DNA of 41,049 nucleotides from Patescibacteria group bacterium (GTDB lineage Bacteria; Patescibacteriota; Minisyncoccia; Phycocordibacterales; UBA1539), in the NCBI GenBank assembly GCA_036985875.1, contig BTQM01000002.1, positions 1 through 41,049 on the forward strand. Reading direction: 5' to 3'. The position numbers and the translations under genes are program-made. Of this stretch, positions 1,907-41,049 are shown piece by piece. The notes below the pieces were generated by a model. It searched no databases. It saw only the letters and a list, made by a program, of their open reading frames with translations, and was not told the DNA's origin. Numbering within the stretch: position 1 is the first letter of the stretch; every line of letters begins with the position of its first letter.

Positions 1907-2995
1907 ATGCCAAAAACGGTGCGGACCATCATGTATACAGAATATACGCTCACGACAACACTCTTGCTTGCTCTATTTTTCCTTGTGTTTTCCACCCACC
2001 TTGCGTATGCGCAGAGCGCGGCCATACGGAACATCGGCTTTATTCCGGGTAATATCTGGTATTCCGAAGATCCTTTTTTTGCCGGAAACAAAATAAGGGT
2101 ATACACAGTGGTGTTCAATAGCAGTCCAAATGATCTTTTGGGAATAATAGAGTTTTATGACAACAGCACTCTGCTTGGGAAAAAAGATTTCTCTCTCGCC
2201 GGTGGTGGCAAGACGCGCAATGTATGGATCGACTGGATGGCGAAGGAGGGGGACCACAAAATATCTGCCAAGATCACGAACGCCACCCTCTCCATCGCGG
2301 GAGGAAAGGAAGAGTCGATCACGCTAGCAAACAATCAAACAGGGGAGAATCAAACATTCGTTGACATTGACACAGACGGGGATGGAATCGGCAACCAGAA
2401 AGACACCGATGACGACAATGACGGCTTGACGGACGCAGAAGAAAAAGAAGCGGGAACAGACCCTCTCAAGAGCGACACGGATGGGGATGGCATTCCCGAC
2501 GGCGAGGATGAAGACCCCACTATCCCCGCGGAGGAAACCCCGTCAGTGACAGAAAATATTAAGAAACGCATTGAGAAAAATGTATCTCCCGCCGTCATCA
2601 AATCCACACGGTCAATCATCAGGAAAGTGGAAGAGTTCAGGGAGGCAAGTAGTGAGAAAGCGGCGATTAAGGTGCGAGAGGCAAAAAGGGAACTGGAATC
2701 TATTAAAAAGAAGGAGTATGTGAACCAGAAAGGAGACGCGCAAGATCGCATATCTTCTACCAAACAGACGGAGAAGATACAAGAGGGAGACATGGAAAAA
2801 ATTGAATCCGAAACACCGTGGGAGGTTGCTGATGATACGATGGGGATAAAGAAACCGCTTGCGTATGCCTCTCTGTTCCTATGGTCCCTCGCTCTATACA
2901 TACTGCAATATAAAGTAGTGTTTTATATTCTTCTACTCTTTCTCATTTTCAAACTGACGATGTTCGCCATCAAACGCTTGTTTAGAAACCCCTAG
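1907..2995 (+). CDS. Membrane-anchored or secreted protein with thrombospondin type-3-like Ca-binding repeats
   Basis: N-terminal hydrophobic signal (LLLALFFLVFSTHLAYA). DxDxDG repeats (DTDGDGIGNQKDTDDDNDGLTD...DTDGDGIPDGEDEDP, about nt 2365-2520). Charged coiled region. C-terminal hydrophobic helices. Confidence 0.6.
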   Translation: MPKTVRTIMYTEYTLTTTLLLALFFLVFSTHLAYAQSAAIRNIGFIPGNIWYSEDPFFAGNKIRVYTVVFNSSPNDLLGIIEFYDNSTLLGKKDFSLAGGGKTRNVWIDWMAKEGDHKISAKITNATLSIAGGKEESITLANNQTGENQTFVDIDTDGDGIGNQKDTDDDNDGLTDAEEKEAGTDPLKSDTDGDGIPDGEDEDPTIPAEETPSVTENIKKRIEKNVSPAVIKSTRSIIRKVEEFREASSEKAAIKVREAKRELESIKKKEYVNQKGDAQDRISSTKQTEKIQEGDMEKIESETPWEVADDTMGIKKPLAYASLFLWSLALYILQYKVVFYILLLFLIFKLTMFAIKRLFRNP

Positions 2996-3024
2996 GATAC
3001 CAAGTATCAGATATCGAGACTCAT

Positions 3025-3049
3025 CTACTAGACGTCGAGCGTCTAGTAG
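3025..3049 (+). terminator. Perfect 10-bp hairpin CTACTAGACG-tcgag-CGTCTAGTAG downstream of the 1907..2995 gene
   Basis: Seen directly in the sequence. No T-run follows, so its terminator function is uncertain. Confidence 0.4.
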
Positions 3050-3110
3050 ATTGGAGCGTGATCTATGTTTATAAAAAGAATAATGTCTGGCATTATTGCA
3101 TGCTAGTGTG

Positions 3111-3116
3111 TATAAT
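3111..3116 (+). promoter_or_regulatory. TATAAT box 7 nt upstream of the uvrB ATG (leaderless-type)
   Basis: TATAAT, then ccatcga, then ATG 3124. No SD. Confidence 0.45.
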
Positions 3117-3123
3117 CCATCGA

Positions 3124-5154
3124 ATGCAGAAATTCAAATTAAAAAGCGAGTGGGCACCCGCCGGCGATCAGCCACAAGCCATAAGAGTGCTCACGGACGG
3201 GCTCCGAAAAAGCATGCGCCATCAGACGCTTCTGGGGGTCACTGGATCGGGCAAGACGTTCACAGTGGCCAATGTTATTGCCAATATCGACAAGCCAACA
3301 TTGGTAATTGCACACAATAAAACCCTTGCCGCACAGCTAGCCCAGGAATACCAGGAGTTTTTTCCGGAAAACGCGGTGCATTATTTCGTTTCTTATTACG
3401 ACTACTACCAGCCGGAAGCATACATGCCGATAACGGATACTTATATTGAAAAGGATGCGCAAATAAATGAAGAGATCGATCGCCTGCGACATGCGTCCAC
3501 ACAAGCCCTTCTGACAAGACGCGATGTTATCATCGTTGCATCCGTCTCCTGCATATACGGCATCGGCTCACCGGAGGAATATCAGAAACAGAATTTGACC
3601 CTGCGAAGAAGCGAGGCGGCAAACCGGCGGGAACTCATAAAAAGTTTGGTAGCGATCTATTTCACGAGAACGAATGCTGATCTCACCCCAGGCACATTCA
3701 GGGCAGTGGGCAACAAGGTGGAGATAATGCCCGTTCACGAAAGGATAATGTACAGCATTGAGATATCAGACGGCAAAATATCCTCACTCTTCAAAATAAA
3801 CGCTCTGACAAGCAGTATTCTAGATGAACCAGACGAGATATCGCTTTTCCCGGCAAAACATTTCATCACGGAGGAGGACCAGAAAAACAGGGCGATCATA
3901 CTCATCAAAGAGGAACTGAAGGAGCGTTTGGGCGAGATGAAAAAAGACGGAAAGGTGCTTGAGTACGAGCGTCTCAAAAGGCGCACCACTTACGACCTCG
4001 CGATGATACGCGAGGTGGGATATTGCAGCGGCATTGAAAACTATTCGCGGCACTTCTCCGGCAAACGCGCGGGGGAACCGCCCGAAACGCTTCTTTCGTA
4101 TTTCCCTCGCAAAGAAGATGGAAGTCCTGATTTTCTCACCATCATTGACGAATCGCACGCCACTGTCCCGCAGATCGGAGGCATGTACGCCGGCGACGCT
4201 TCAAGAAAAAAAACGCTGGTGGAGCACGGTTTTCGCCTGCCGAGCGCTTTGGATAATCGCCCGCTTACATCGCGCGAATTTGGGAAAAGGGTTGGACAAG
4301 TTATCTATACGTCCGCAACTCCCGGCACCTACGAGCGGGAGGTGAGCATGCAAACAGCGGAGCAAGTCCTGCGTCCGACGGGACTTGTAGACCCCAAGAT
4401 AGATGTACGCCCAATCACGGAAAAGGGCGGCTACGGGGGCCAGATCGCGGACTTTATCAAGGAGACGGAAAGAGAAATAAAAAAGGGAGGGAGGGTAATC
4501 GCAACGACGCTGACAAAGAAAATGGCAGAGGACTTGAGCGAGTATCTAAAAGAAAAAAAAGTCGCGGCAGAGTACCTGCACAGCGACATCAAAACGATGG
4601 ATAGGATCAAAGTGCTCACGGACTTCAGAAAAGGTTCGCACGCGGATGGCTTTGACTGTTTGGTAGGCGTCAACCTCCTGCGGGAAGGACTTGATCTTCC
4701 CGAGGTCTCCTTCATCGGAATACTGGATGCAGACAAGGAAGGATTTCTCCGCAGCGAGACTGCGCTTATCCAAACGATAGGCCGCGCCGCAAGAAACGTG
4801 CTGGGGCGCGTGATACTCTACGCCGATACTCTGACCGGCTCCATGGAACGGGCGATCAAGGAAACGGACAGGAGGCGCTCTCTCCAGCTCGCGTACAATA
4901 AAAAGCACGGCATTACACCGAAAAGCATCGTGAAAAATATCCGCGACATTACGGAACATATGGAAAGCCAGCACGTAAGAACGGTGCGCACAATGCTTGC
5001 AATAGAAGAAAAGAAATTTGCCAAACATCCGAAGAAATTCATTGCGCTGAAAGAGAAGCGAATGAGTGAGGCGGTAAAAATACTTGATTTTGAGACCGCC
5101 GCGATCTTGCGCGATGAGATCAAGATCCTTAAGGAGAGATTGCCGCGATCCTAG
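3124..5154 (+). CDS. uvrB: Excinuclease ABC subunit B
   Basis: ORF 3058..5154 trimmed to MQKFKLKSEWAPAGDQPQAI... Motifs: Walker A GVTGSGKT, DESH box, C-terminal UVR motif (FETAAILRDEI). Confidence 0.95.
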   Translation: MQKFKLKSEWAPAGDQPQAIRVLTDGLRKSMRHQTLLGVTGSGKTFTVANVIANIDKPTLVIAHNKTLAAQLAQEYQEFFPENAVHYFVSYYDYYQPEAYMPITDTYIEKDAQINEEIDRLRHASTQALLTRRDVIIVASVSCIYGIGSPEEYQKQNLTLRRSEAANRRELIKSLVAIYFTRTNADLTPGTFRAVGNKVEIMPVHERIMYSIEISDGKISSLFKINALTSSILDEPDEISLFPAKHFITEEDQKNRAIILIKEELKERLGEMKKDGKVLEYERLKRRTTYDLAMIREVGYCSGIENYSRHFSGKRAGEPPETLLSYFPRKEDGSPDFLTIIDESHATVPQIGGMYAGDASRKKTLVEHGFRLPSALDNRPLTSREFGKRVGQVIYTSATPGTYEREVSMQTAEQVLRPTGLVDPKIDVRPITEKGGYGGQIADFIKETEREIKKGGRVIATTLTKKMAEDLSEYLKEKKVAAEYLHSDIKTMDRIKVLTDFRKGSHADGFDCLVGVNLLREGLDLPEVSFIGILDADKEGFLRSETALIQTIGRAARNVLGRVILYADTLTGSMERAIKETDRRRSLQLAYNKKHGITPKSIVKNIRDITEHMESQHVRTVRTMLAIEEKKFAKHPKKFIALKEKRMSEAVKILDFETAAILRDEIKILKERLPRS

Positions 5155-14390: not shown

Positions 14391-14891
14391 TTATTCGCTA
14401 TTTTCTTTCATATGTGCCTTCAGGAGTGCGATGATTTCTGTCTGACCAAACGTTGTCGCATGCATTAATGCGGTCGTTCCATTTTCATCTTTTGCATTCA
14501 CATCGGCATCGTACTTAAGCAAGATGTCAGCAATTTCAGTTTGACCAAACAGCGCCGCAATCATTAGTGCGGTTGTTCCATCTTTATCTTTTGCATTCAC
14601 ATCGGCACCGCGATCAAGAAGGAGTTTCGTGACTTCAGTATGGACATACAACACCGCAATCATTAGTGCGGTTGTTCCATCTTTATCTTTTGTGTTCACG
14701 TTGGCGCCCTTTTCAAGTGCGCGCCGCACCGTTTCCATGTCTCCTTTCAGCGCACCGCCGACAAGCACCGAGTTCTGGAAAGAAACATCAGGTGCGGCAT
14801 ATGACGGAAGCGTTATGGTGAACATTCCGCACAATATCAACAGTGGTGCCAGTACGCCAATCTGTATTCTCGATATCCTCTTTGTGTTCAT
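14391..14891 (-). CDS. Secreted ankyrin-repeat protein (166 aa)
   Basis: ORF 14391..15254 trimmed to MNTKRISRIQIGVLAPLLILCGMFTITLPSYAAP (signal peptide; GAGGTG upstream). Contains 3-4 ANK repeats (DKDGTTALM.A......E....LL..GADVNAK). Confidence 0.8.
   Translation of the reverse strand: MNTKRISRIQIGVLAPLLILCGMFTITLPSYAAPDVSFQNSVLVGGALKGDMETVRRALEKGANVNTKDKDGTTALMIAVLYVHTEVTKLLLDRGADVNAKDKDGTTALMIAALFGQTEIADILLKYDADVNAKDENGTTALMHATTFGQTEIIALLKAHMKENSE
14456..14752. repeat. Three tandem 99-bp units encoding the ANK repeats
   Basis: Units 2 and 3 share a 39-nt perfect run (14555-14593 = 14654-14692). Unit 1 is more diverged. Confidence 0.85.
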
Positions 14892-14937
14892 GCGTGACCA
14901 CCTCTCTGTTGTCAAATTGTTACTGGGTCTGCCGTAC

Positions 14938-14966
14938 AGCGTATCACGTATATGGGATATTGTCAA
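14938..14966 (-). promoter_or_regulatory. Promoter TTGACA-17-(TGa)TACGCT for the ankyrin gene
   Basis: Minus strand: -35 at 14966-14961, -10 at 14943-14938. Confidence 0.5.
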
Positions 14967-15039
14967 CTCCGTTAAAGGATTACCGCAACTAAAAACTTTG
15001 AAAAAGAGGAGGAGTATGAAATAATACATTCTAAAGAGT

Positions 15040-15903
15040 ATGGTGAAAAACGAGACTTTCATTATAAAAGCGTCGGGAGAAAAAGAGTTGTTTTCTGAAG
15101 AGAAGCTTCGTCGTTCTTTGAGGCGTTCCGGCGCGCCCGCGAATGTGGTTGACGTGGTTATGGATCGTATCAGAGATGAGCTTGCAGACGGGATGACGAC
15201 TTCCAATATATACCGCCGCGCGTTTGACATTCTGAAGAGGAATAAAAAAACCATTGCGATGCGTTACAGCTTGAGGCAGGCGGTGATGCAAATGGGTCCG
15301 ACAGGATTCCCTTTTGAGAAATTAGTGGGGGAGATCCTTAAAAAACAGGGCTATGATGTCAAGGTAGGTGTGGTAATGGCGGGACACTGTGTTTCTCACG
15401 AAATTGACGTACTCGCAAAGAAACAGCGTAAACACATTATCGTTGAAGCAAAATTCCACAATCAACTTGGTATAAAAACAGACCTGAAAGTGGCGCTCTA
15501 TGTGCAAGCTCGGTTTGAAGACATCAGAAAGAAACGTGAAGAAAAATATGTTAAACAAGAGAGGGAACACGAGGCATGGCTTATAACAAATACAAAGCTT
15601 ACTGCAGAAGCGGTGCGGTACAGCAAATGCATGGGAATGAGAGCAATAGGATGGAATTATCCACGCTGGGGAAATCTGCAGGACTTAATCGCAAGTTCAG
15701 ACGTACACCCCCTCACATGCCTTACCACGCTCTCCACGGGGCATAAAAGACAACTTTTTGAGAAAGGGGTAGTGCTTTGCAGAGAGCTTCTTGAAGACAA
15801 AAGCGCACTAAAGACACTCGGCATAACCGATAAAAAAATTAGGGACGTACTGGAGGAGATCAAGCTTATATGCAGAGATGTCATAGGGCTTGATGCCGCA
15901 TGA
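15040..15903 (+). CDS. ATP-cone domain fused to a Mrr-like PD-(D/E)xK restriction-endonuclease domain
   Basis: The N-terminus (IIKASGEKELFSEEKLRRSLRRSGA...IYRRAFDIL) looks like an ATP-cone. The core (GHCVSHEIDVLA...IIVEAKFH) matches the D...ExK nuclease motif, followed by a WLITNTKLT..A block. Confidence 0.7.
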   Translation: MVKNETFIIKASGEKELFSEEKLRRSLRRSGAPANVVDVVMDRIRDELADGMTTSNIYRRAFDILKRNKKTIAMRYSLRQAVMQMGPTGFPFEKLVGEILKKQGYDVKVGVVMAGHCVSHEIDVLAKKQRKHIIVEAKFHNQLGIKTDLKVALYVQARFEDIRKKREEKYVKQEREHEAWLITNTKLTAEAVRYSKCMGMRAIGWNYPRWGNLQDLIASSDVHPLTCLTTLSTGHKRQLFEKGVVLCRELLEDKSALKTLGITDKKIRDVLEEIKLICRDVIGLDAA

Positions 15904-21003: not shown

Positions 21004-22209
21004 ATGTCATTCCCCATAAAACTCTTCAAATTCGCGCGTTCTAAAAAAGAAAAGAGAGTCGCCATCTTGGACATTGGAAGTTCAAGCGTGGGGGGTGCGA
21101 TCGTATTGCTCAAAGAGGATGGCAAGCCAAATGTAATATACAGCACGCGGAAAGAAATTGCCTTTCAAGATAAATTGGATTTTGAGAGATTTTTTACGTT
21201 GATGCTAAAGACTTTGAAAAGCGTTTTGGTTGAGATGGAAAAAGTTGCCGGTGGACCGCCCAAGAGTTTCTTTTGTCTGCTTTCTTCGCCGTGGTACACA
21301 TCCGCGACAAGAATAGTAAATGTGAGCAAAGACAAGCCGTTCACGGTTACTCCCCAAATCGTTGATATGCTAATAGAGAGCGAGGCGCGCGCCATGAGCA
21401 CCGCCGTGGGCACAAACAAAAAAACAGGGGAAGAGGAGTCCGAAATCATGGACATACAAAATATCCAGATTAAATTAAACGGATACGAGACTAGCAACCC
21501 ATATGATAAAAGTGTGCGAAATATTGAGATAGCTCTTTTTATCAGCATGAGCTCAAAAAGAGTGCTCGACTCCGTAAAGAAGGAAATATTCAAGATTTTC
21601 CACTCCCGCCACGTCAGGTTCAGTTCATTCGCGCTTGTTGCACTTTCCACACTGCGAGATATTTTCACCGATAAAGACGACTTCCTCTTCATGGATGTAA
21701 CGGGAGAGGTTACCGATGTATCGATCATCAGAAACAATGTGCTTATGGAGACGATCTCATTCCCGCTCGGAAAAAATTTCTTGACAAGAGAGGCTATGAA
21801 GGGGCTCTCCGCCACTCCTGAAGAAGCGATGTCAATGCTTACAATGTACCGCGAGGGTACAAGTGCAGCATCCACCGCGAGGAGGCTGGAAAGCATCCTG
21901 TCGGATGCGAGGAAAAAATGGCTTACATTCTTCGCAGATTCTCTGCGGAACCTTTCAAGAGAATTATCCGTGCCCAATACGGTGTTTCTTGCCGCAAGCC
22001 AAGACATCGCTTGGTGGTTTGCGAAATCCATAGAAAAAGGGAAATTTGATCAATCGGTTTTTGCGGGCGACTCACTTAATGTAAAGCTTTTGGACAAAAA
22101 AATTCTTTCAGGATTCTGTGACGTCAATCCTCGCGTGAAAAAAGACCCTTTTATCATGCTAGAGGCAATTTTTAGCAACAAAACGCTTAGAATCGGTCCC
22201 GAAAAATGA
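21004..22209 (+). CDS. Actin-fold (ASKHA) ATPase-like protein, FtsA/PilM-like
   Basis: Phosphate-1-like motif VAILDIGSSSVGGAIV near the N-terminus. Second motif FMDVTGEVTDVSII. Length 401 aa. Subfamily not resolved. Confidence 0.5.
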   Translation: MSFPIKLFKFARSKKEKRVAILDIGSSSVGGAIVLLKEDGKPNVIYSTRKEIAFQDKLDFERFFTLMLKTLKSVLVEMEKVAGGPPKSFFCLLSSPWYTSATRIVNVSKDKPFTVTPQIVDMLIESEARAMSTAVGTNKKTGEEESEIMDIQNIQIKLNGYETSNPYDKSVRNIEIALFISMSSKRVLDSVKKEIFKIFHSRHVRFSSFALVALSTLRDIFTDKDDFLFMDVTGEVTDVSIIRNNVLMETISFPLGKNFLTREAMKGLSATPEEAMSMLTMYREGTSAASTARRLESILSDARKKWLTFFADSLRNLSRELSVPNTVFLAASQDIAWWFAKSIEKGKFDQSVFAGDSLNVKLLDKKILSGFCDVNPRVKKDPFIMLEAIFSNKTLRIGPEK

Positions 22210-22272: not shown

Positions 22273-23622
22273 ATGCCCAAAAAAATAATACAAGACATAA
22301 TCAGTTCCCGTCGCCCGCAAAAGCAAGATTTCCACGAAGGCAACGACGAGGGGAAACGCAAATATTTCTCACGGCGTCCAAAGGGCGAAGATGGCGGGGA
22401 GGACAGTAGTGCCGCCCCTCGTATCCGCCTGGGGAGGAGGGGATTAAGAATCGCAAAAGGGGAACTGCATGGCAGTTTTCCAAAAATTGTTTTGTGGATT
22501 ATCGCGGCAGGAGCTTTCGTATTCTTTTTATTCGTACTTCTATCAATGTTCTCGGGTACAGTAATAGAAGTTGTCCCTATGCAAACACGCGTCTCCTTAG
22601 GCGGGAATTTCACTGCAAACAAAAATGCCGCGGAGGGAGAACTCCAATTTAAGCTGATCATGCTGGAGAGCGAGGCAACACTTGATATTCCGGCAACGGA
22701 AGAAAAAGAGGTGGAGAGAAAAGCGAAAGGCACCATCGTCATCTACAATGCCTATAGCTCAAAAAGTCAAACACTCATAAAAAACACGAGGTTTGAAAAT
22801 CCAGATGGTAAAATTTACAGAATAAATAAGTCAATAAGGATACCGGGTACAACAGTATCGGGTGGAAATATTGTACCTGGCAATATTGAGGTAACCGTGT
22901 ACGCTGATTTCCCGGGAGAAGAATATAACATCGGTTTAACGGATTTTACCATTCCGGGCTTCAAGGGTGATCCGAGATTTAAGAAATTTTATGCGCGCTC
23001 CAAAACACCGATGATCGGCGGATTCTCCGGTATTGTAAAAACAGTTTCTTTAGAAGACACAGCAGAAGCGAGTCGCACACTGCAAAATTCTCTGAAGGAA
23101 GTGCTGTTGGAGCAGGCACGTTCGCAAGTACCAGAAAATTTTATTCTGTATGACAAAGCGGTATTTTTCAGGTGGGACGAGACCAAAGGCACAAAAGTAG
23201 AAACGACCGAAGACTCTGTTGAGATCGTGGAAAAGGGCACGCTATATGGAATAATCCTTGAGAAGGATGAGCTGAGCGCTCACATTGCAAAAAACACCGT
23301 GGCTTCCTACGATGGGGGGGCTGTATCTATAAAAGAGGTAGGGGAGCTGGAATTCAACGTAAGTAACAAAAATGGATTTGATCCGGAGGAAAATAGTGAA
23401 TTTGATTTCACCCTTTCGGGACCAGTAAATATCGTGTGGAAAATCGACAAAACTGCTCTCGTCCGCGATCTTGTCGGGATACAAAAAAGGGATTTTCTCA
23501 ACGTAATTGAGAAATATACGAACATAAAAAGAGCAGAAGCCACCATAAGACCATTTTGGAAAAGAACATTTCCAGAAAATGCTGAACGCATCACCATACG
23601 AATAATTGAGGAAGCGTCGTAA
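22273..23622 (+). CDS. Hypothetical bitopic membrane protein (449 aa) with a large extracytoplasmic domain
   Basis: Basic cytoplasmic N-terminus and one TM helix (IVLWIIAAGAFVFFLFVLLSMF). The remainder looks beta-rich. From memory, similar CPR proteins are sometimes labelled baseplate J/gp47-like; this is unverified. Confidence 0.5.
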   Translation: MPKKIIQDIISSRRPQKQDFHEGNDEGKRKYFSRRPKGEDGGEDSSAAPRIRLGRRGLRIAKGELHGSFPKIVLWIIAAGAFVFFLFVLLSMFSGTVIEVVPMQTRVSLGGNFTANKNAAEGELQFKLIMLESEATLDIPATEEKEVERKAKGTIVIYNAYSSKSQTLIKNTRFENPDGKIYRINKSIRIPGTTVSGGNIVPGNIEVTVYADFPGEEYNIGLTDFTIPGFKGDPRFKKFYARSKTPMIGGFSGIVKTVSLEDTAEASRTLQNSLKEVLLEQARSQVPENFILYDKAVFFRWDETKGTKVETTEDSVEIVEKGTLYGIILEKDELSAHIAKNTVASYDGGAVSIKEVGELEFNVSNKNGFDPEENSEFDFTLSGPVNIVWKIDKTALVRDLVGIQKRDFLNVIEKYTNIKRAEATIRPFWKRTFPENAERITIRIIEEAS

Positions 23623-32305: not shown

Positions 32306-33286
32306 ATGGACAAAATGAATTTCAAACCCAAAAATTCGATAACAAATTACCGGACCTTTCGCCCTCGATACGAAATAAATCGATGGCCATATCTTCTTGC
32401 CTTGCCCATAATGTGGGCATTGACACTGTGGGTACTGATGAAAAAAGGCGCATTGAAAATATTCAGGAAAAAGCCACACATTAACAGCTTTTGGTTTGAT
32501 GGATTAGGGCTTACGTGCAGGGCAATCAAGGAAGGTACCGCTTCGTGGAAAGCACTTGATATCATTTACAATTATCGTTTCCGTCAAAAAGCGGGCTTGA
32601 GAGGGTTCGCGGACGATTTTTGGATAGGAATAATAAACGCTCAAGCAGTCAGAAACAGGCTCAGGCTTGTAAAATATGAGCTTGAAAAGATAGTAGGAGA
32701 GTTTGCTGATTCCAAGATTGTAAAGCTTCCTCCGTGCTTGAAGAACAGGAACAGAATAGCAACGAAAGAAGTAAGAATTTTGTCACTTGGTTCGGGGTCG
32801 GCTCAAGGCATCATTGAGCTTATGACAGAGTTAAAGCCGAGGGGGATAATCATTAAGGCGTTTTTGCTTGATTTGGATCAATCCGCTCTGGAGTATGCCC
32901 AAAAACTCGCAAGGAAGTACGGCGTTGCTGACCAAATTGAAGTATCCTGTACCAAGATAAGTGCAGTAATGTCGGTAGCAGAGAGTTTTAAGCCACATAT
33001 AATTGAGATGTTGGGGCTCCTGGATTACATACCCGAAAAGAAAGCAGTGCGCCTTGTCAGGAAAATACATGACGCACTGCCCAAAAGTGGGGTATTTCTC
33101 ACATGCAATATCCGCCATAATCCTGAGCAATTTTTCCTGGGTATTGTCATCAACTGGTGGATGATTTACAGAACACCAAAAGAATTTGAGGGTATAATAT
33201 CCAAGGGCGGTTTTGGGACTTACAAACTTATTTATGAGCCCCTTAACGTCCACGGCATCGCTATTGCAAGAAAATCCATTGGTTAA
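32306..33286 (+). CDS. Class I SAM-dependent methyltransferase with an N-terminal membrane anchor
   Basis: TM helix (WPYLLALPIMWALTLWVLM). Motif I ILSLGSGSAQG. Acidic post-I LLDLD. Motif IIEMLGLLDY. SD AGAGGGGA upstream. Confidence 0.65.
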   Translation: MDKMNFKPKNSITNYRTFRPRYEINRWPYLLALPIMWALTLWVLMKKGALKIFRKKPHINSFWFDGLGLTCRAIKEGTASWKALDIIYNYRFRQKAGLRGFADDFWIGIINAQAVRNRLRLVKYELEKIVGEFADSKIVKLPPCLKNRNRIATKEVRILSLGSGSAQGIIELMTELKPRGIIIKAFLLDLDQSALEYAQKLARKYGVADQIEVSCTKISAVMSVAESFKPHIIEMLGLLDYIPEKKAVRLVRKIHDALPKSGVFLTCNIRHNPEQFFLGIVINWWMIYRTPKEFEGIISKGGFGTYKLIYEPLNVHGIAIARKSIG

Positions 33287-33381: not shown

Positions 33382-34998
33382 ATGAGCTTTTACGCAATAT
33401 CAGCACTGGCAAATGCAATTACGAGCTTGATTTTGGGCGCGCTAGTGCTCTCAAGAAATGTAAAAAACAAGGTGAATATAACATTTGCTCTATTCACGCT
33501 CGCGATAACTGTATGGAGTATCGGATATTTCTTTTGGCAAATAGCGCTTACGGCACCAGGGGCATTGCTATGGAGTAAAATTTTTATGGCCGCCGCTATT
33601 TTTATTCCCATCTTTTATTTTCATTTCACCGTAACGTTTTTGGGCATAGAAAAAACTCAGAAAATATTTGTGTGGATAGCATATATCCTCGGTCTCTTCT
33701 TTTTCATACTAAATTTTACTCCCTATTTCATAGCAAGTGTTACACCAAAGCTTTCTTTTGCGTTTTGGCCAAATCCAGGTATTTTTTATCATTCGTTTTT
33801 AGCAGCATGGTTTTTATATGTAGTCTACACAACATATCTGCTCTATAAAGAATTTCGCACGAAAAAAAGCACGCGACATGATCAACTAAAATACATACTT
33901 ATCGGTATGGTTGTCGGCTATCTCGGCGGTATTACAAATTATTTTCTCTGGTATGACATACCAATACCTCCAGTAGGCAACATTCTTGTCTCAGTGTATG
34001 TCATTATGGTTGCCTATGCTATTTTGAGACACCATCTCTTCAGCATTAAGGTCATCGCCACCGAGCTTCTTATCATCTCTTTATGGGTACTCATTTTCAT
34101 AAGAACGCTCCTTTCCGAGACACTGTGGGAGCAGCTGCTCAATGGAAGCCTTCTTGTGTCCATGATGGTCCTAGGCGTATTTCTTATCCAAAGCGTCATC
34201 AGAGAAGCAAAAACGCGAGAAAAGATCGAGCACCTCGCGAAACAGCTCAAAGGGGAGAATAAGCGGTTGCGCGAGCTAAGTCGACAAAAATCAGAATTCG
34301 TTTCAATCGCCTCACATCAGCTAAAGACACCACTTACCGCCATCAAAGGATACGCCTCTATGCTCCTTGAAGGGTCATTTGGTGCGCTGACGGAGGCTAT
34401 ACGAGAAGCGGTTGAAAAAATTTACCGTTCAAGCCAGTCGCTTGTGGTAATCGTTGACGATTTTCTTATAGCATCCAATATCGAGCACGGACAAATACAA
34501 TATAGATTCAACACCGTGAAATTAAAAAACCTCGTGGAAGAAGTCGTGAGTAACTTGACATCTCCTGCCAAAAAAAAGGGGCTGGCGATTAACGTCCAGG
34601 CCGAAGATGGGGATAGCTACAGCGTGATGGCGGATCATGGCAAAATAAAACAAGTACTGCACAGTATTATACATAATGCGATCAACTATACGGGGAAAGG
34701 GTTCGTCAATGTATCGCTTTCAAAAAATAAAGAAAGCGGCAAGATAAGAATCGCCGTGTCTGATAGCGGAGCAGGTATACGCAAAGACATAATGCCGCGA
34801 CAAAAGGTCACTAGGCAACACGAAGTGCGGCTTGGTCCAGATTTGGAGCTCTACGCCGCAAAAGAGATCATCAAAGCACATGGAGGAAATATCTGGGTGG
34901 ACTCAAGAGGAGAAGGACGCGGCTCAACGTTTTTTATAGAACTCGCCGGAGTTAAGCCACGTTCTGTGGTAGGCAATATAAAACGTCACGCAAAATAA
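33382..34998 (+). CDS. Sensor histidine kinase (HK1) with a >=7-TM N-terminal sensor; H-box intact, ATP-lid/G2 box degenerate
   Basis: H-box FVSIASHQLKTPL, N box HNAINYT, G1 DSGAGI, but GPDLEL in place of GxGLGL and a shortened F-box region. Confidence 0.85.
   Translation: MSFYAISALANAITSLILGALVLSRNVKNKVNITFALFTLAITVWSIGYFFWQIALTAPGALLWSKIFMAAAIFIPIFYFHFTVTFLGIEKTQKIFVWIAYILGLFFFILNFTPYFIASVTPKLSFAFWPNPGIFYHSFLAAWFLYVVYTTYLLYKEFRTKKSTRHDQLKYILIGMVVGYLGGITNYFLWYDIPIPPVGNILVSVYVIMVAYAILRHHLFSIKVIATELLIISLWVLIFIRTLLSETLWEQLLNGSLLVSMMVLGVFLIQSVIREAKTREKIEHLAKQLKGENKRLRELSRQKSEFVSIASHQLKTPLTAIKGYASMLLEGSFGALTEAIREAVEKIYRSSQSLVVIVDDFLIASNIEHGQIQYRFNTVKLKNLVEEVVSNLTSPAKKKGLAINVQAEDGDSYSVMADHGKIKQVLHSIIHNAINYTGKGFVNVSLSKNKESGKIRIAVSDSGAGIRKDIMPRQKVTRQHEVRLGPDLELYAAKEIIKAHGGNIWVDSRGEGRGSTFFIELAGVKPRSVVGNIKRHAK
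34321..34376 (+). repeat. 56-nt block identical to 35433-35488
   Basis: The block is ctaaagacaccacttaccgccatcaaaggatacgcctctatgctccttgaagggtc in both kinases (encodes LKTPLTAIKGYASMLLEGS). Confidence 0.95.
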
Positions 34999-35015
34999 TA
35001 TATTACAAAATAATC

Positions 35016-36101
35016 ATGGAACTGTTCAGCAACATTGCATTCCCCGCGCTCCTGCCTTCATTCGGAGTTTTCAATCTCACCTGGCTAGGAGCAACAGTAG
35101 CACTACTTGCCTTAGGCGCACTAGGATACCTAATAATTAAATATAGGTCAGGGAACTTCCAACTTATAACAACGGGGTTGTTTGCTTTGCTGATATCATT
35201 AACGCTTTTGTTTGAAATACTTTTCTCTCGCACACTTGACGGCATCATTATGAAAACTGTGATTTTTGCCTTGGTCGCATTCACAAGTATTTTTCTCATT
35301 AGAAGCATACGGCATGAAACAGAGAGCAAGGAAGAAGTGGAGGGCCTCGTCCAAGACCTTGCGGAGGCGCACAAGGATCTGCAGGCGCTTGACGAGAGAA
35401 AATCAGAATTTGTTGCAACCGCGGCAAGCAGCCTAAAGACACCACTTACCGCCATCAAAGGATACGCCTCTATGCTCCTTGAAGGGTCCTTCGGCGAATT
35501 GTCTAGCCGCGTGCAAGTGGCAATTGAGAGAATATTCCAATCAAGCCAAGGATTGGTAGTCATCATCGAAGATTTGACAGACATACTGAAGATCGAGAGT
35601 GGGGAAATAGCCTATAAGTTCTCCAGAGTAGATATGAGAAAGTTGGTTCAGGGCGTAGTGGATGATATGGCTATCTCCGCGAGGAAAGCGGGCATCGCAA
35701 TAAGTTTTGACTCTGACAAGAATGAGGATTATTACACTAACATTGATGTGGGGAAAATAAAACAGGTTATATTCAACCTTGCGGATAATGCAGTAAAATA
35801 TACGCCTCATGGATCTATACAAATATCACTATTGAAAGACACGGCAAACGGCGTCATAATCCTTAAAATTTCCGATTCCGGGATCGGAATGAGCAAGGGA
35901 ACCATCAAGAAAATTTTTCAAAAATTCAGCAGGGCAGAAGAAGCAAGCAAATTCCATACCGCAGGATCAGGATTGGGACTCTATATCGTGCGAGAGATCC
36001 TCAAAAAGCACGGCGGGCATGTATGGGCAGAGTCTGCCGGCACGAGCAAAGGATCAACCTTCTATGTAGCGCTTAAGGAGCAGAGGCTTGGTGCACGGTA
36101 A
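35016..36101 (+). CDS. Histidine-kinase-like protein (HK2) with 3-4 TM helices; ATP-binding domain intact, phosphoacceptor His replaced by Ser
   Basis: H-box position reads FVATAASSLKTPL. N box NLADNAVKYT, G1 DSGIGM, F FQKF and G2 GSGLGLYI are all present. Confidence 0.85.
   Translation: MELFSNIAFPALLPSFGVFNLTWLGATVALLALGALGYLIIKYRSGNFQLITTGLFALLISLTLLFEILFSRTLDGIIMKTVIFALVAFTSIFLIRSIRHETESKEEVEGLVQDLAEAHKDLQALDERKSEFVATAASSLKTPLTAIKGYASMLLEGSFGELSSRVQVAIERIFQSSQGLVVIIEDLTDILKIESGEIAYKFSRVDMRKLVQGVVDDMAISARKAGIAISFDSDKNEDYYTNIDVGKIKQVIFNLADNAVKYTPHGSIQISLLKDTANGVIILKISDSGIGMSKGTIKKIFQKFSRAEEASKFHTAGSGLGLYIVREILKKHGGHVWAESAGTSKGSTFYVALKEQRLGAR
35433..35488 (+). repeat. 56-nt block identical to 34321-34376
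   Basis: See the partner feature. Confidence 0.95.
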
Positions 36102-36565: not shown

Positions 36566-37450
36566 ATGAAACGCACTATTTGTTTTGGTATCGCCCTCAT
36601 ATTTCTGGGGGTAATGTTGAACGTTAACATCCCATACGGGAACACGGAGAAAGATAGCTCCGCAAAGCATAGATGCCATGTTCCGCCAAAGTACCGATCG
36701 CAACACCGGAAACTTATGAGGAAACTTTCCCAAGGGATCAAGGGTGAGTTCGCTATTGATCCTGAGTTTGTAAAGCGCGTCCTCTGTGACCCCAGACTGA
36801 AAGTGTATCTGACGGCAAAAAGGCCCAAAGGGAAGAAAGGGGTGCGACGACTTAAAGCTGACTACAGAAAAAATGTGTTGAGCAAAAAGTCCGTTGCGGA
36901 CGGTAAGGAATACATTGATGCGCATAAAGATTACTTTGTACGCGCGCAAAAAATGTATGGCGTAGATCCCTACATCATAACTGCCATCATCCGCGCAGAA
37001 AGTAATTATGGCAAAAATCTCGGGGAGAGGCTTGTGATAAATTCTCTTTACAGACTCTACATGGTTCCTCCGAAAACAAAGAAGATCAATTGGAGAAACT
37101 TTGCACTGAAGCAACTGAAGCATCTTCTGCATCTTGCGCAGAAGAATAACCGAGACGTGTTTTCCATTAAAGGATCCTGGGCCGGTGCACTCGGTCTTCC
37201 GCAATTCATTCCCTCTTCATATAACACGTATGCTGTTGATGGGAACGGAGACGGCGTGGTAGATCTTTTCCATCACCCTGATGCGATCATGAGTGTTGCA
37301 CACTACCTCAAAGAGAATCGTTGGGGGAAAGACAGTAAAAGACGCGTCCTTTTGCGGTACAATAATGCAACTTTCTACGTTAATCTCGTGCTTAAGTTTC
37401 GAAAAAAACTTAAGGCATACTACGAAAAAAACGCCTCAGAGGCGTTGTAG
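36566..37450 (+). CDS. Lytic murein transglycosylase (MltB/SLT_2-like)
   Basis: Signal-like N-terminus. Motifs: YGVDPYIITAIIRAESNYG and GSWAGALGLPQFIPSSY..YAVDGNGDG..DL. Confidence 0.8.
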   Translation: MKRTICFGIALIFLGVMLNVNIPYGNTEKDSSAKHRCHVPPKYRSQHRKLMRKLSQGIKGEFAIDPEFVKRVLCDPRLKVYLTAKRPKGKKGVRRLKADYRKNVLSKKSVADGKEYIDAHKDYFVRAQKMYGVDPYIITAIIRAESNYGKNLGERLVINSLYRLYMVPPKTKKINWRNFALKQLKHLLHLAQKNNRDVFSIKGSWAGALGLPQFIPSSYNTYAVDGNGDGVVDLFHHPDAIMSVAHYLKENRWGKDSKRRVLLRYNNATFYVNLVLKFRKKLKAYYEKNASEAL

Positions 37451-37476: not shown

Positions 37477-37500
37477 CAAATCAAGTGGGTTTTGATGATC

Positions 37501-37818
37501 ATGGCAAAAAAATTTCAAAAACGCAAAGAAGATTTTGTGTGTGAACATTGCACCACGGAGGTGGTGGGCAACGGCTACACCAACCATTGTCCGAGATGTA
37601 TTTGGAGCAAACATGTGGATATAAATCCGGGCGACCGCGCCTCCTCCTGTGAGGGGGCAATGCGAGCGATAGATATTGAAGTAAAAGCGTGCACATATAC
37701 CATCGTACATCAATGTATCCTGTGCGGGCACAAACGAAAAAACAAGGCGGTAAAAGGAGACAGTATTGACGCAATGCTTGCGATTCAAAGGGGGGGAGAC
37801 GGGAAAGAGAATAGGTAA
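37501..37818 (+). CDS. RNHCP domain protein (Zn-ribbon-like)
   Basis: Motif: C.HC.......GYTNHCPRCIWSKHVD. A second Cys pair (CILCGH). Length 105 aa. Confidence 0.65.
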   Translation: MAKKFQKRKEDFVCEHCTTEVVGNGYTNHCPRCIWSKHVDINPGDRASSCEGAMRAIDIEVKACTYTIVHQCILCGHKRKNKAVKGDSIDAMLAIQRGGDGKENR

Positions 37819-39456: not shown

Positions 39457-40119
39457 ATGAGTAAATTCTTACTTGCGGTTATACTGACGATCGGTTTAGT
39501 TCTACCATTCACACCAAGTTTTGCCACGACTGCCGTTCAAGAGATGACAGGCATTCAAAATGAAATGAAGAAAATCGACGGAGAGATCGGCACCTTGAAG
39601 GCAAAACTTCCCGGGCTTGCAGCTCTTCAGCGCGGGCGCGTACAAGAAGTCGCACAAAAGAAAAGTAAGCATGATGCAATACACAAGTATTACAGGGAAG
39701 AACTTCAGAAGTACAATACCAGATGCCTAGGCCGCCCACTTCTCGGTGACCATTATCGCAGTTGCAAGGCAAAGCAGGAGAGGTTGCAGCAGTATAAGAA
39801 TGCTAAACAACCCGAACTTCGCCGAATGATAACGCGTGTACGCGAACTAGGGCGCCAATACCAGGAAACAGCTAATGAAATAACGCTCACCAAGTCAGGG
39901 ATACAAAAAAAGGTCAATTATAAATCCAGACTTGAAGCAAGATTACAATCCTTGCGCAAGCGTATCATTGACGCGTGCCGTAATGTTCCCGCCGGTGCGA
40001 GCGATGAAGAGATCAAGCTCAAATGCGGAAATGTTCAATTTGACGGCGCCAATTCCAACCTGCCATCAGGCGATAATCTTCGTCCGCAGAGGCGCGGAAT
40101 TTCTATTACTCCGCGTTAA
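39457..40119 (+). CDS. Secreted coiled-coil protein with four Cys (220 aa), function unknown
   Basis: Signal peptide MSKFLLAVILTIGLVLPFTPSFATT. Heptad-like charged helices. SD present. Confidence 0.6.
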   Translation: MSKFLLAVILTIGLVLPFTPSFATTAVQEMTGIQNEMKKIDGEIGTLKAKLPGLAALQRGRVQEVAQKKSKHDAIHKYYREELQKYNTRCLGRPLLGDHYRSCKAKQERLQQYKNAKQPELRRMITRVRELGRQYQETANEITLTKSGIQKKVNYKSRLEARLQSLRKRIIDACRNVPAGASDEEIKLKCGNVQFDGANSNLPSGDNLRPQRRGISITPR

Positions 40120-40182: not shown

Positions 40183-40615
40183 GCTATTGATGCCCTTGTT
40201 GAAGTCTAAAGGCGGCAGGTATACCTTTATTTTACTAATTAGTATACCTCTACCATTGCTCACCGATCGCCTCGGTAAAACTCATGGTCTTTGCCTGTGA
40301 GGCGGGTTGGCGAAAGAGAGAATGTTTTGGGGCCCCACAAAGGACTTTCGGGTAAGGGAGCTATCTGGCGGAGGCAATGAGGGTGGGGTGGGGATAAATA
40401 TGGGGTATTGCGTGCAAGGAGAAGCGGGAAATGAAGGATGTCGAGAAGACAGAGAATTGAATTAGGGGGGTTTTGATGTCTTACAATATAATGAAAGCTA
40501 ATTTCACCCTTAAAATTAGCGATATCTTGCTAATTTTTTTCAGGTCTTCCCAAATGTGTAGTTTTCTGTATACTTTATAATAGTATTTTAATAGCTTTAA
40601 TAAACATTAAATATC

Positions 40616-40804
40616 ATGCCTGAATTAAAAGCACTTTGTATGAGATGTCGTGATGATAATAAAAAGCCAACCATGCAGACCATGAAAGACATTGAGGTAC
40701 AAGAGAAGAACAATAGGTACTCTGCCAAAGGGAAGTGCACACAGTGTGTAGGTAATATGTTCAAGTTCTTATCAAAAGACGACGCAGAGAAATACAAAAG
40801 CTAA
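40616..40804 (+). CDS. Small Zn-ribbon protein, DUF5679-like (62 aa)
   Basis: CxxC...(29)...CxxC pattern: LCMRCRDDNKKPTMQTMKDIEVQEKNNRYSAKGKCTQCVGNMFKFLS. The gene and its surroundings are AT-rich. Confidence 0.5.
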   Translation: MPELKALCMRCRDDNKKPTMQTMKDIEVQEKNNRYSAKGKCTQCVGNMFKFLSKDDAEKYKS

Positions 40805-40815
40805 ATACTCAAAAC

Positions 40816-40840
40816 AAAAACCCCTTAAGGAGGTTTTTGT
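40816..40840 (+). terminator. Intrinsic terminator AAAAACCCC-ttaa-GGaGGTTTTT
   Basis: Directly after the stop at 40802-40804. Confidence 0.75.
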
Positions 40841-40853
40841 TTAATATGACTAT

Positions 40854-40890
40854 GAGATACATTCGGACGTCCGATGTCCGAATGTATCTC
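40854..40890. repeat. Perfect 15-bp inverted repeat GAGATACATTCGGAC-gtccgat-GTCCGAATGTATCTC
   Basis: Seen directly in the sequence. It is followed by CTCC-ttcg-GGGG and a T-run (40894-40912). Confidence 0.8.
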
Positions 40891-40930
40891 ATTTCTCCTT
40901 CGGGGGATTTTTTGCTATGATAACTCGTAT

Positions 40931-41049
40931 ATGGAGCGGATACTTATTAAAGATTTACATGAACATGTTGGCGAGCAGGTGAGTATCGCGGGATGGGTGG
41001 AAACGCAGCGCGACCATGGCAAGCTCATTTTCATTGACCTGCGCGACAG
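40931..41049 (+). CDS. aspS: 5' end of aspartate--tRNA ligase (truncated by the window edge)
   Basis: [39 protein letters not shown] matches the AspRS OB-fold N-terminus (GWV...RDHG.L.FIDLRD). TGcTATGAT lies 9 nt upstream. Confidence 0.75.

Follow-up and report, generated by a model that had tools for sequence, protein, structure and literature searches.

A candidate split histidine kinase encoded by a tandem gene pair of uncultured Paceibacteria

Histidine kinases are usually viewed as self-sufficient homodimers whose paralogs are insulated from each other. The closest concept to the system described here is the CheA3/CheA4 pair of Rhodobacter sphaeroides, in which CheA4 lacks the phosphorylatable domain and CheA3 the dimerization/catalytic domain; neither protein autophosphorylates on its own, their mixture does, and the His-bearing partner also has phosphatase activity (PMC3591291). 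Here, we analyzed a 41,049-nucleotide stretch of DNA from a Patescibacteria group bacterium (assembly GCA_036985875.1, contig BTQM01000002.1; the whole stretch is referred to as the window) that encodes two adjacent sensor kinases, HK1 and HK2, in which an earlier note made from the sequence alone had seen reciprocal loss of core motifs. As in CheA3/CheA4, two separately encoded proteins each lack the part that the other has. However, CheA3/CheA4 are class II kinases split by loss of whole domains, whereas HK1 and HK2 are complete class I HisKA kinases with every domain retained and with losses at the level of motifs; both are membrane proteins and stem from a tandem duplication.

Other described systems share single features with the window pair. 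The GacS variants H293A and G472A/G474A are each dead alone, and their mixture regains autophosphorylation (PMC8498467). HK1 and HK2 carry the same lesions, i.e., in the acceptor His and in the same two glycines of the G2 box. Mixing a His mutant with a G2 mutant in this way is the standard assay of trans-autophosphorylation, of which the window pair is a natural counterpart. The GacS experiment was nonetheless an engineered test on one trans-acting kinase, which works only for trans kinases, whereas the lesions in the window are natural and are distributed over two paralogs. Adjacent genes also divide the kinase functions in the HK1-HK2-TcrA system of Mycobacterium tuberculosis, where one single-domain protein is ATP-binding, the other bears the His and the regulator is encoded next door. 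This system (Rv0600c-Rv0601c-Rv0602c) appears among those listed in PMC8965865. It resembles the window in that neighboring genes share out the kinase functions but was split by domain loss, in contrast to the full-length proteins of the window, which have no regulator nearby. DivL (PMC4211667) and RetS, in its heteromers with GacS (PMC8498467), are kinase-like proteins without a working acceptor His that contact another kinase, as proposed here for HK2. However, they regulate or inhibit the partner rather than supplying catalysis, and the catalytic ATP-binding (CA) domains of their partners are competent, whereas that of HK1 is not, as judged from its motifs. Finally, HK853 of Thermotoga maritima was the best sequence match of both HK1 (E = 1.6e-26) and HK2 (E = 7.7e-37) and has a loop of similar length in the domain for dimerization and histidine phosphotransfer (DHp), but it is a self-sufficient homodimer with all motifs present. 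In the literature, we came across no tandem full-length class I kinases described as having lost motifs reciprocally, and no account of the Paceibacteria module to which the pair belongs.

HK1 (33382..34998, + strand, as are all features of the two genes) is an open reading frame (ORF) of 538 aa encoding an A-type membrane histidine kinase with matches to Pfam HisKA_7TM, HisKA and HATPase_c. HK2 (35016..36101), of 361 aa, is its B-type paralog, about 40% identical to HK1 and matching HisKA and HATPase_c only. Bit scores against HisKA (PF00512; cut-off, 26.9) were 62.8 for HK1 and 48.9 for HK2, and those against HATPase_c (PF02518) were 54.3 and 91.4, respectively, so that the fold is present in both proteins. 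HK1 also scored 49.4 bits against HisKA_7TM (PF16927; cut-off, 28.6), a family matched by the orthologs of HK2 but not by HK2 itself, because the corresponding region is deleted. Between the stop codon of HK1 and the start codon of HK2 lies a 17-nt spacer (34999..35015); in orthologous pairs the spacer measures about 7 to 34 nt. A scan for promoters and terminators yielded counts no higher than those of shuffled controls, with no + strand terminator between HK1 and HK2. Cotranscription of the two genes is thus likely, given a spacer devoid of terminator-like sites.

HK1 retains the phospho-acceptor but has a degenerate ATP-binding region. Its H-box, FVSIASHQLKTPL (34297..34335), contains His312 (CAT, 34315-34317), which was aligned by phmmer to the acceptor His260 of HK853, and Thr316 at position H+4; only 1 of 21 conserved DHp columns deviates. 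The N-box (34663..34692) reads SIIHNAINYT against a family consensus NLIDNAIKYT, with the substitutions N428S and D431H and with the Mg-binding Asn retained. Degeneration extends over the ATP lid and the G2 box (RKDIMPRQKVTRQHEVRL-GPDLEL, 34780..34851). Specifically, the F-box Phe residues have disappeared through an extra 2-residue deletion and an F-to-V change relative to intact relatives, and the G2 box, GSGIGL in these relatives, reads GPDLEL (34834-34851), its D487 (GAT) and E489 (GAG) aligning (phmmer) with G2 glycines 2 and 3 of HK853. The G1 box, DSGAGI, is kept. The lid had been described as about 8 residues shorter than that of HK2; it is indeed shorter, by 6 residues, of which 4 are typical of the whole A subfamily. 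An AlphaFold2 model of the cytoplasmic part of HK1 (mean predicted local distance difference test [pLDDT] score, 78.5) showed the DHp hairpin and the CA fold, but lacked the F-box helix, with pLDDT values below 50 across residues 471-486. The top Foldseek matches of this model were HK853 (first by E-value), GacS, RetS, DivL and WalK. A frameshift or sequencing error was rejected as the source of the lid damage because both other frames hold stop codons and contain no F-box- or G2-like sequence, nor anything else kinase-like. With the F-box and two G2 glycines lost and the N-box substituted, HK1 is therefore not a canonical class I HisKA kinase.

HK2 presents the converse picture. At the acceptor position it carries Ser138-Ser139 (AGC AGC, 35427..35432), where B-type orthologs have His-His. 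Ser138 (35427-35429) was aligned by phmmer to His260 of HK853 and Ser139 to the catalytic Glu, in agreement with the assignment made in the earlier note, whose quoted codons for His312, for the two acidic residues of GPDLEL and for this Ser are all correct. The His residues of HK2 lie at positions 100, 119, 265, 314, 332 and 335, and none of them is an alternative acceptor within the DHp domain. Each His-to-Ser change (CAY to AGC) takes two base changes; a sequencing error was thus discarded, as the His-His-to-Ser-Ser replacement requires four. The ATP-binding boxes of HK2 (35775..35981) are all intact, i.e., the N-box NLADNAVKYT (35775-35804), the G1 box DSGIGM (35874-35891), the F-box IFQKF (35913-35927) and the G2 box GSGLGL (35964-35981), with a deviation at 1 of 27 conserved CA columns. 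The AlphaFold2 model of HK2 (mean pLDDT, 75.6) predicted a helical hairpin, the HATPase_c fold and the F-box helix. These monomer models and the Foldseek matches confirm the predicted folds only and are silent on whether phosphorylation occurs in cis or in trans. With Ser138 opposite His260 and no other His in the DHp domain, HK2 is likewise not a canonical class I HisKA kinase. HK2 has also lost about 180 N-terminal residues, i.e., most of the HisKA_7TM sensor. Its closest homologs are full-length 7TM kinases of 542-544 aa that have the His and share 54-55% identity with it over 98% of its length. The hydrophobic segments of HK1 correspond to at least seven predicted membrane helices, and those of HK2 to the three that remain. 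HK2 is thus a truncated B-type protein and was not built around a small separate sensor. Consequently, the idea that two inputs converge on one phospho-site does not fit this pair, in which the HK2 sensor is mostly lost; it could apply where a His-less B protein is full-length.

The placement of these lesions is unusual within the family. In a reference set of 219 full-length homologs with 42 columns conserved at 90% or more, G2 glycine 2 is invariant, glycine 3 is 99% conserved and the acceptor His is 99.5% conserved. HK1 deviates at 7 of the 42 columns, 6 of them in the ATP-binding N, F and G2 boxes, and the deviations of HK2 are confined to the His, an R-to-K change common to HK1, and the part missing from its sensor, against a median of 1 in the rest of the family. 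The lesions are therefore not scattered but targeted, and the two sets complement each other; those in the G2, F and N boxes of HK1 fall outside family variation. The G2 state of HK1 was absent from about 230 homologs except for the A partners of His-less B proteins. Going by sequence motifs, acceptor His and ATP-binding activity thus appear to reside on different polypeptides, and the earlier statement that each protein lacks what the other retains holds, the CA boxes being damaged in HK1 and the His being lost in HK2.

By sequence and gene order, HK1 and HK2 are orthologs of a syntenic tandem module, an A kinase followed by a B kinase, of uncultured Paceibacteria. In the cytoplasmic core, HK1 is nearest to upstream, short-lid A kinases (55-58% identity), and HK2 to downstream B kinases (58-59%). 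Whole-length similarity proved a misleading guide to HK1 orthology, its top matches being long-lid kinases; the A-type assignment was hence based on the cytoplasmic core and synteny, with relatedness assessed by distance matrices. HK1 is syntenic with the A genes of the homologous loci L001, L005, L170 and L171. Gene order in L001 and L171 is Methyltransf_20, kinase A (536 aa), kinase B (542-543 aa) and RNHCP, and that in L005, L170 and L173 is dnaK, dnaJ, A, B, RNHCP and trpS. The upstream neighbors of the pair in L005, L030 and L169 include acyltransferase and HAD genes, not Methyltransf_20. A kinases are recognized by SHQLRTPL and a lid four residues shorter than that of B kinases, whose signature is (A/S)HHLRDPL. 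Throughout the family, the position after the acceptor His, normally acidic (H-E/D), holds Gln in A-type kinases and most singletons and His in B-type kinases. Wherever a B-type gene has 1.5 kb or more of upstream DNA, a same-strand A-type gene lies upstream of it, and B follows each of two short-lid A kinases looked up separately. The collection comprises about 20 distinct A-B pairs, among them all His-less B genes for which upstream DNA was available. Homologs with the substitutions described here therefore sit in adjacent pairs, not as singletons. All motifs are intact in both members of L001, L005, L087, L169, L170 and L167, with the B kinase of L169 cut by a contig end, that of L167 truncated and its A kinase partly seen. 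The losses in the window are thus lineage-specific, since the closest syntenic pairs are intact. The named homologs of the kinases come from Paceibacteria, Yonathbacteria among them.

Conservation across the clade is reciprocal. Over 48 conserved core columns, the DHp domain deviates at 0-3 positions in A kinases and at 1-4 in B kinases (9 in L030); the CA domain deviates at 2-8 positions in A kinases and, for B kinases, at none in 10 of 14 pairs. Consistently, orthologs from 10 other genomes are more similar in the DHp domain for A (0.73) than for B (0.64), A being higher in 43 of 45 comparisons, and more similar in the CA domain for B (0.58) than for A (0.41), with B higher in 43 of 45; these comparisons are non-independent, but the effect is large. 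Such patterns indicate that selection protects the His-bearing domain of A and the catalytic domain of B.

The loss of the acceptor His from B kinases has recurred. When 1.84 billion cluster representatives were searched with a B-type profile, seven more B-like proteins proved to lack the acceptor His, each with canonical ATP-binding boxes. The His is replaced by Arg in P0238, by Phe in P0244 and P0024, by Tyr in P0273, by Val in P0259 and by Asn in P0264 and P0340. A genome scan added L030_B, with Lys at this position and a canonical CA domain. Every His-less B with upstream DNA is directly preceded by an A kinase that keeps the His and a near-perfect DHp domain but has a degenerate CA domain. 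L175_A has lost the Mg-binding Asn and all G2 glycines, and its G2 box, NDTELY, contains Asp-x-Glu like that of HK1; in L173_A, the Mg-binding Asn is changed to Tyr and the G2 box reads DSSLGL. The other A partners deviate at eight (L030_A), five (L176_A and L178_A) and three (L171_A) CA columns. If a clearly dead A-type CA domain is taken to be one that has lost the Mg-binding Asn or two or more G2 glycines, such domains are found beside a His-less B in 3 of 7 pairs and beside a His-bearing B in none of 14. Pairs that have the His resemble the window more (55-59%) than do the other His-less pairs (40-55%), and the His-less L171_B is 74% identical to the His-bearing L001_B. These affinities to His-bearing relatives make the losses independent, and we estimate that the His was lost in at least six B lineages in which a perfect CA domain was kept. 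The His-less state also appears stable, as judged from L176_B and L178_B, which are 60% identical, have the Asn-Gln replacement in common and show 0-1 CA deviations. In two His-less lineages, the DHp domain of B has decayed badly (10 of 21 columns deviate in L178_B and 9 of 21 in L030_B), with 0-1 deviations in the ATP-binding boxes. N-terminal truncation of B is recurrent as well and was seen in the window, L030, P0273 and L167, the latter with the His kept.

Acidic residues at G2 glycines are a further observation on the A partners of His-less B kinases. They occur in the window (GPDLEL, 34834-34851) and in the A genes of L175 (NDTELY, 2321-3949), L173 (DSSLGL, 2584-3945) and L171 (DSGIGL, 2388-3998), and in none of the 14 pairs whose B keeps the His. 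These replacements may represent convergence, for example by filling the empty phosphate site of a dead domain.

The two window genes also bear the mark of a recent exchange. A 56-nt tract that encodes DHp helix 1, LKTPLTAIKGYASMLLEGS, is identical in HK1 (34321..34376) and HK2 (35433..35488), starting right after the His-Gln codons in the former and right after the Ser-Ser codons in the latter. Outside the tract, the DNA of the two genes is about 50% identical. At identical residues, the codons match in 17 of 18 cases inside the tract versus 40% outside (P about 1e-7). In HK2, the tract supplies the A-type Thr at H+4, where B-type kinases have Asp, so the direction of conversion is from A to B. 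The tract therefore reads as a recent A-to-B gene conversion of DHp helix 1, from which it follows that the two genes recombine. Helix 1 is the dimer and regulator-docking surface, and its identity in both proteins suggests, without proving it, that HK1 and HK2 interact. No comparable tract was found in the orthologous pairs L001 and L005; the window alone carries one. General concerted evolution or coevolution of A and B within genomes was considered and rejected, as A-B identities within and between genomes are equal (helix 1, 0.64/0.64; helix 2, 0.41/0.40; CA, 0.37/0.37).

No response regulator accompanies the pair. Pfam scans of about 40 window ORFs detected no receiver domain, and an unfiltered search of six-frame window segments of at least 50 aa with a receiver profile gave a best E value of 0.11, i.e., again no receiver domain. 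The same profile readily detects regulators in unrelated loci. The earlier remark that the 41 kb encode no receiver domain is thus true but not special to the window: none of the A-B loci of relatives has a response regulator nearby, and its absence is a property of all these loci and normal for the clade.

These observations on motifs, orthology, synteny, reciprocal conservation, recurrence and the conversion tract lead us to favor, with somewhat better than even confidence, the reading that HK1 and HK2 form a functionally split kinase in which the CA domain of HK2 would phosphorylate His312 of HK1. HK1 would serve as the membrane sensor, contribute the DHp domain whose His312 can be phosphorylated and offer the surface on which the response regulator docks, while no longer binding ATP. 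HK2 would be an accessory catalytic subunit consisting of a short 3-helix membrane anchor, a His-less DHp domain used for association only and a fully competent ATP-binding domain. In this scheme, the genes would be cotranscribed and the proteins would colocalize in the membrane and associate through their DHp domains, helix 1 of HK2 having recently been overwritten by that of HK1. The HK2 CA domain would then phosphorylate His312, and the phosphoryl group would pass to a response regulator encoded elsewhere. For the clade as a whole, we regard it as plausible, somewhat short of probable, that reciprocal loss has, repeatedly and on independent occasions, turned a duplicated sensor kinase into an obligate enzyme of two subunits. 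To the same degree, we can envisage that the upstream copy retains the sensor and the His and the downstream copy only the catalytic ATP-binding domain, with the window as one end state.

Several points weigh against this split-kinase reading. Its main difficulty is geometric. HK853 autophosphorylates in cis. VicK does so as well (PMC3904827), and VicK/WalK are among the best solved relatives of the pair. The DHp loop of the window proteins has the overall length of that in HK853, with an S-[LF]-G-E-L motif that is likewise similar. Were the geometry cis, the HK2 CA domain of a simple heterodimer would lie beside HK2's own Ser, and such a complex might therefore fail to be productive; productivity may require a higher-order assembly or another handedness. 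The functional complementation proposed in the earlier note gains from the intact relatives, the reciprocal conservation and the recurrence, while its trans mechanism must be reconciled with these cis kinases. The comparative data argue that the CA domain of B has a substrate other than its own His and do not address geometry. Further, L030_A, L171_A, L176_A and L178_A are degenerate only in part and may have kept ATP binding, and the association of clearly dead A domains with His-less B kinases has a hand-calculated Fisher probability of about 0.03, uncorrected for phylogeny. Within-genome A-B similarity shows no general excess that would point to coevolution, and HK1 and HK2 are both known from the window's contig alone.

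Among the alternatives, we gave most weight to regulation by a pseudokinase, which we still consider rather unlikely. HK2 would bind HK1 or the response regulator and act allosterically in the manner of DivL or RetS, with no phosphorylation between the proteins, and HK1 would be a signal-controlled phosphatase or phosphotransfer protein whose regulator is phosphorylated by another kinase or by acetyl phosphate. Regulatory His-less kinases are established (DivL, PMC4211667; RetS-GacS heteromers, PMC8498467), HK1 retains the H-x-x-x-T needed for HisKA phosphatase activity (motif as in PMC3591291) and HK2 acquired its H+4 Thr via the conversion tract; DivL and RetS are also near the top of the structural matches of the HK1 model, which mainly reflects domain arrangement. 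However, this scenario leaves the pair without any kinase activity. It explains neither why the ATP boxes of B are invariant (0-1 deviations) despite a decayed DHp domain in L030_B and L178_B, nor why a clearly dead A CA domain adjoins only His-less B kinases. A pathway being lost from a reduced genome, in which both genes are young pseudogenes that are still open, seems decidedly improbable. Reduced genomes are characteristic of the candidate phyla radiation, HK2 bears a large deletion, changes in both proteins disable stand-alone kinase activity and both are known from a single contig. Yet the lesions are not scattered, with the HK1 DHp and HK2 CA domains essentially untouched, the ORFs are open across 538 and 361 codons, and a recent gene conversion kept DHp helix 1 of HK2 intact. 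The complementary state moreover recurs in several independent lineages and has persisted between L176 and L178.

A slightly fainter possibility than decay is that each protein works alone, HK1 still autophosphorylating in cis despite its odd lid and HK2 having an unrelated role. The retained Mg-binding Asn and G1 box of HK1 are compatible with this scenario, as is the cis mechanism of the closest solved relatives of the family, and at least one kinase without a normal ATP lid, DosS, autophosphorylates, according to the title of a reference in PMC3904827. In GacS, however, replacing the same two G2 glycines by Ala abolishes ATP binding (PMC8498467), and HK1 has Asp and Glu at these positions and no F-box; the confinement of its G2 state to A partners of His-less B kinases is a further argument to the contrary. 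We give very little credence to changed chemistry, in which the HK2 CA domain would phosphorylate Ser138/Ser139 or a Ser/Thr of another protein, like some other members of the GHKL ATPase superfamily, which includes the histidine kinases. Two serines do lie exactly at the acceptor position. Anti-sigma factor kinases and plant receptors provide precedents for Ser/Thr kinase activity in histidine-kinase-like proteins. Nevertheless, the residue found there in the other His-less B proteins is R, F, Y, V, N or K, so Ser is not a conserved replacement.

If the split-kinase reading is true, a natural reciprocal-loss pair that evolved several times would break the picture of the histidine kinase as a self-sufficient homodimer and imply that heteromeric kinases with division of labor arise readily. 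The A-B pairs would then amount to a natural series of experiments showing class I histidine kinases as heteromers with inter-subunit phosphorylation, and to a clean bacterial case of subfunctionalization within one enzyme. Kinases that genome censuses list as orphan or "dead" might then be halves of a single enzyme, and whether autophosphorylation runs in cis or in trans would have consequences for evolution. The pair constitutes a directly testable system, with two small cytoplasmic domains and many natural intermediate states, and a first functional handle on signaling in uncultured bacteria of the candidate phyla radiation.

The kinase pair is embedded in housekeeping DNA of a candidate-phyla-radiation bacterium; the window genes include uvrABC, ribosomal protein genes, rpoA, grpE-dnaK-dnaJ, Methyltransf_20, SLT transglycosylase, RNHCP and trpS. 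Directly upstream of the pair lies the Methyltransf_20-like gene (32306-33286), whose product is probably membrane-associated. Downstream, the SLT transglycosylase gene (36566-37450) separates HK2 from the RNHCP-domain gene (37492..37818, + strand, 108 aa). In many relatives, an RNHCP gene (about 100 aa, Zn-finger-like) directly follows B, overlapping it or lying less than 10 nt away, and it often overlaps the B stop codon by 20-29 nt (coordinates: L001, 11636-11947; L168, 1582-1893; L171, 5635-5940; L173, 5577-5876; L177, 1112-1411). The RNHCP protein may be a third component of the kinase module. Our literature search on HisKA_7TM and RNHCP retrieved nothing functional.

Other kinases encountered in the survey show further departures from the canonical motifs. 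The Yonathbacteria-type A kinases of L009 (2358-4070), L011 (3562-5280), L092 (294-1949) and L103 (29-1744) have a highly acidic ATP-lid insertion of 20-40 residues, with G2 glycine 1 changed to Ser, Thr or Ala and the first N-box Asn to His. A different His-less kinase, with the H-box EAQGSLVAPL, is encoded in Colwellbacteria (L037, 2895-4601) upstream of a His-bearing kinase; several receiver-domain genes lie near this locus, and the downstream kinase is duplicated in L133 and L134. In P0288 (2017 aa), four separate stretches match the B-type profile, and this protein may be a fusion of several kinase cores.

As to the remainder of the window, Rfam searches at gathering thresholds detected neither RNA families nor tRNAs in the whole 41 kb, and the ends (1-370 and 40300-41049) lack convincing ORFs. 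Four sizeable ORFs have no Pfam match (865-1887, 21004-22209, 22273-23622 and 39457-40119), the last of which encodes abundant coiled-coil-like sequence and an N-terminal signal or anchor. As called, an ankyrin-repeat gene (14391-15254, - strand) overlaps by about 215 nt an ORF (15040-15903, + strand) that carries ATP-cone and Mrr-type restriction-endonuclease domains, which is unusual in a small housekeeping region.

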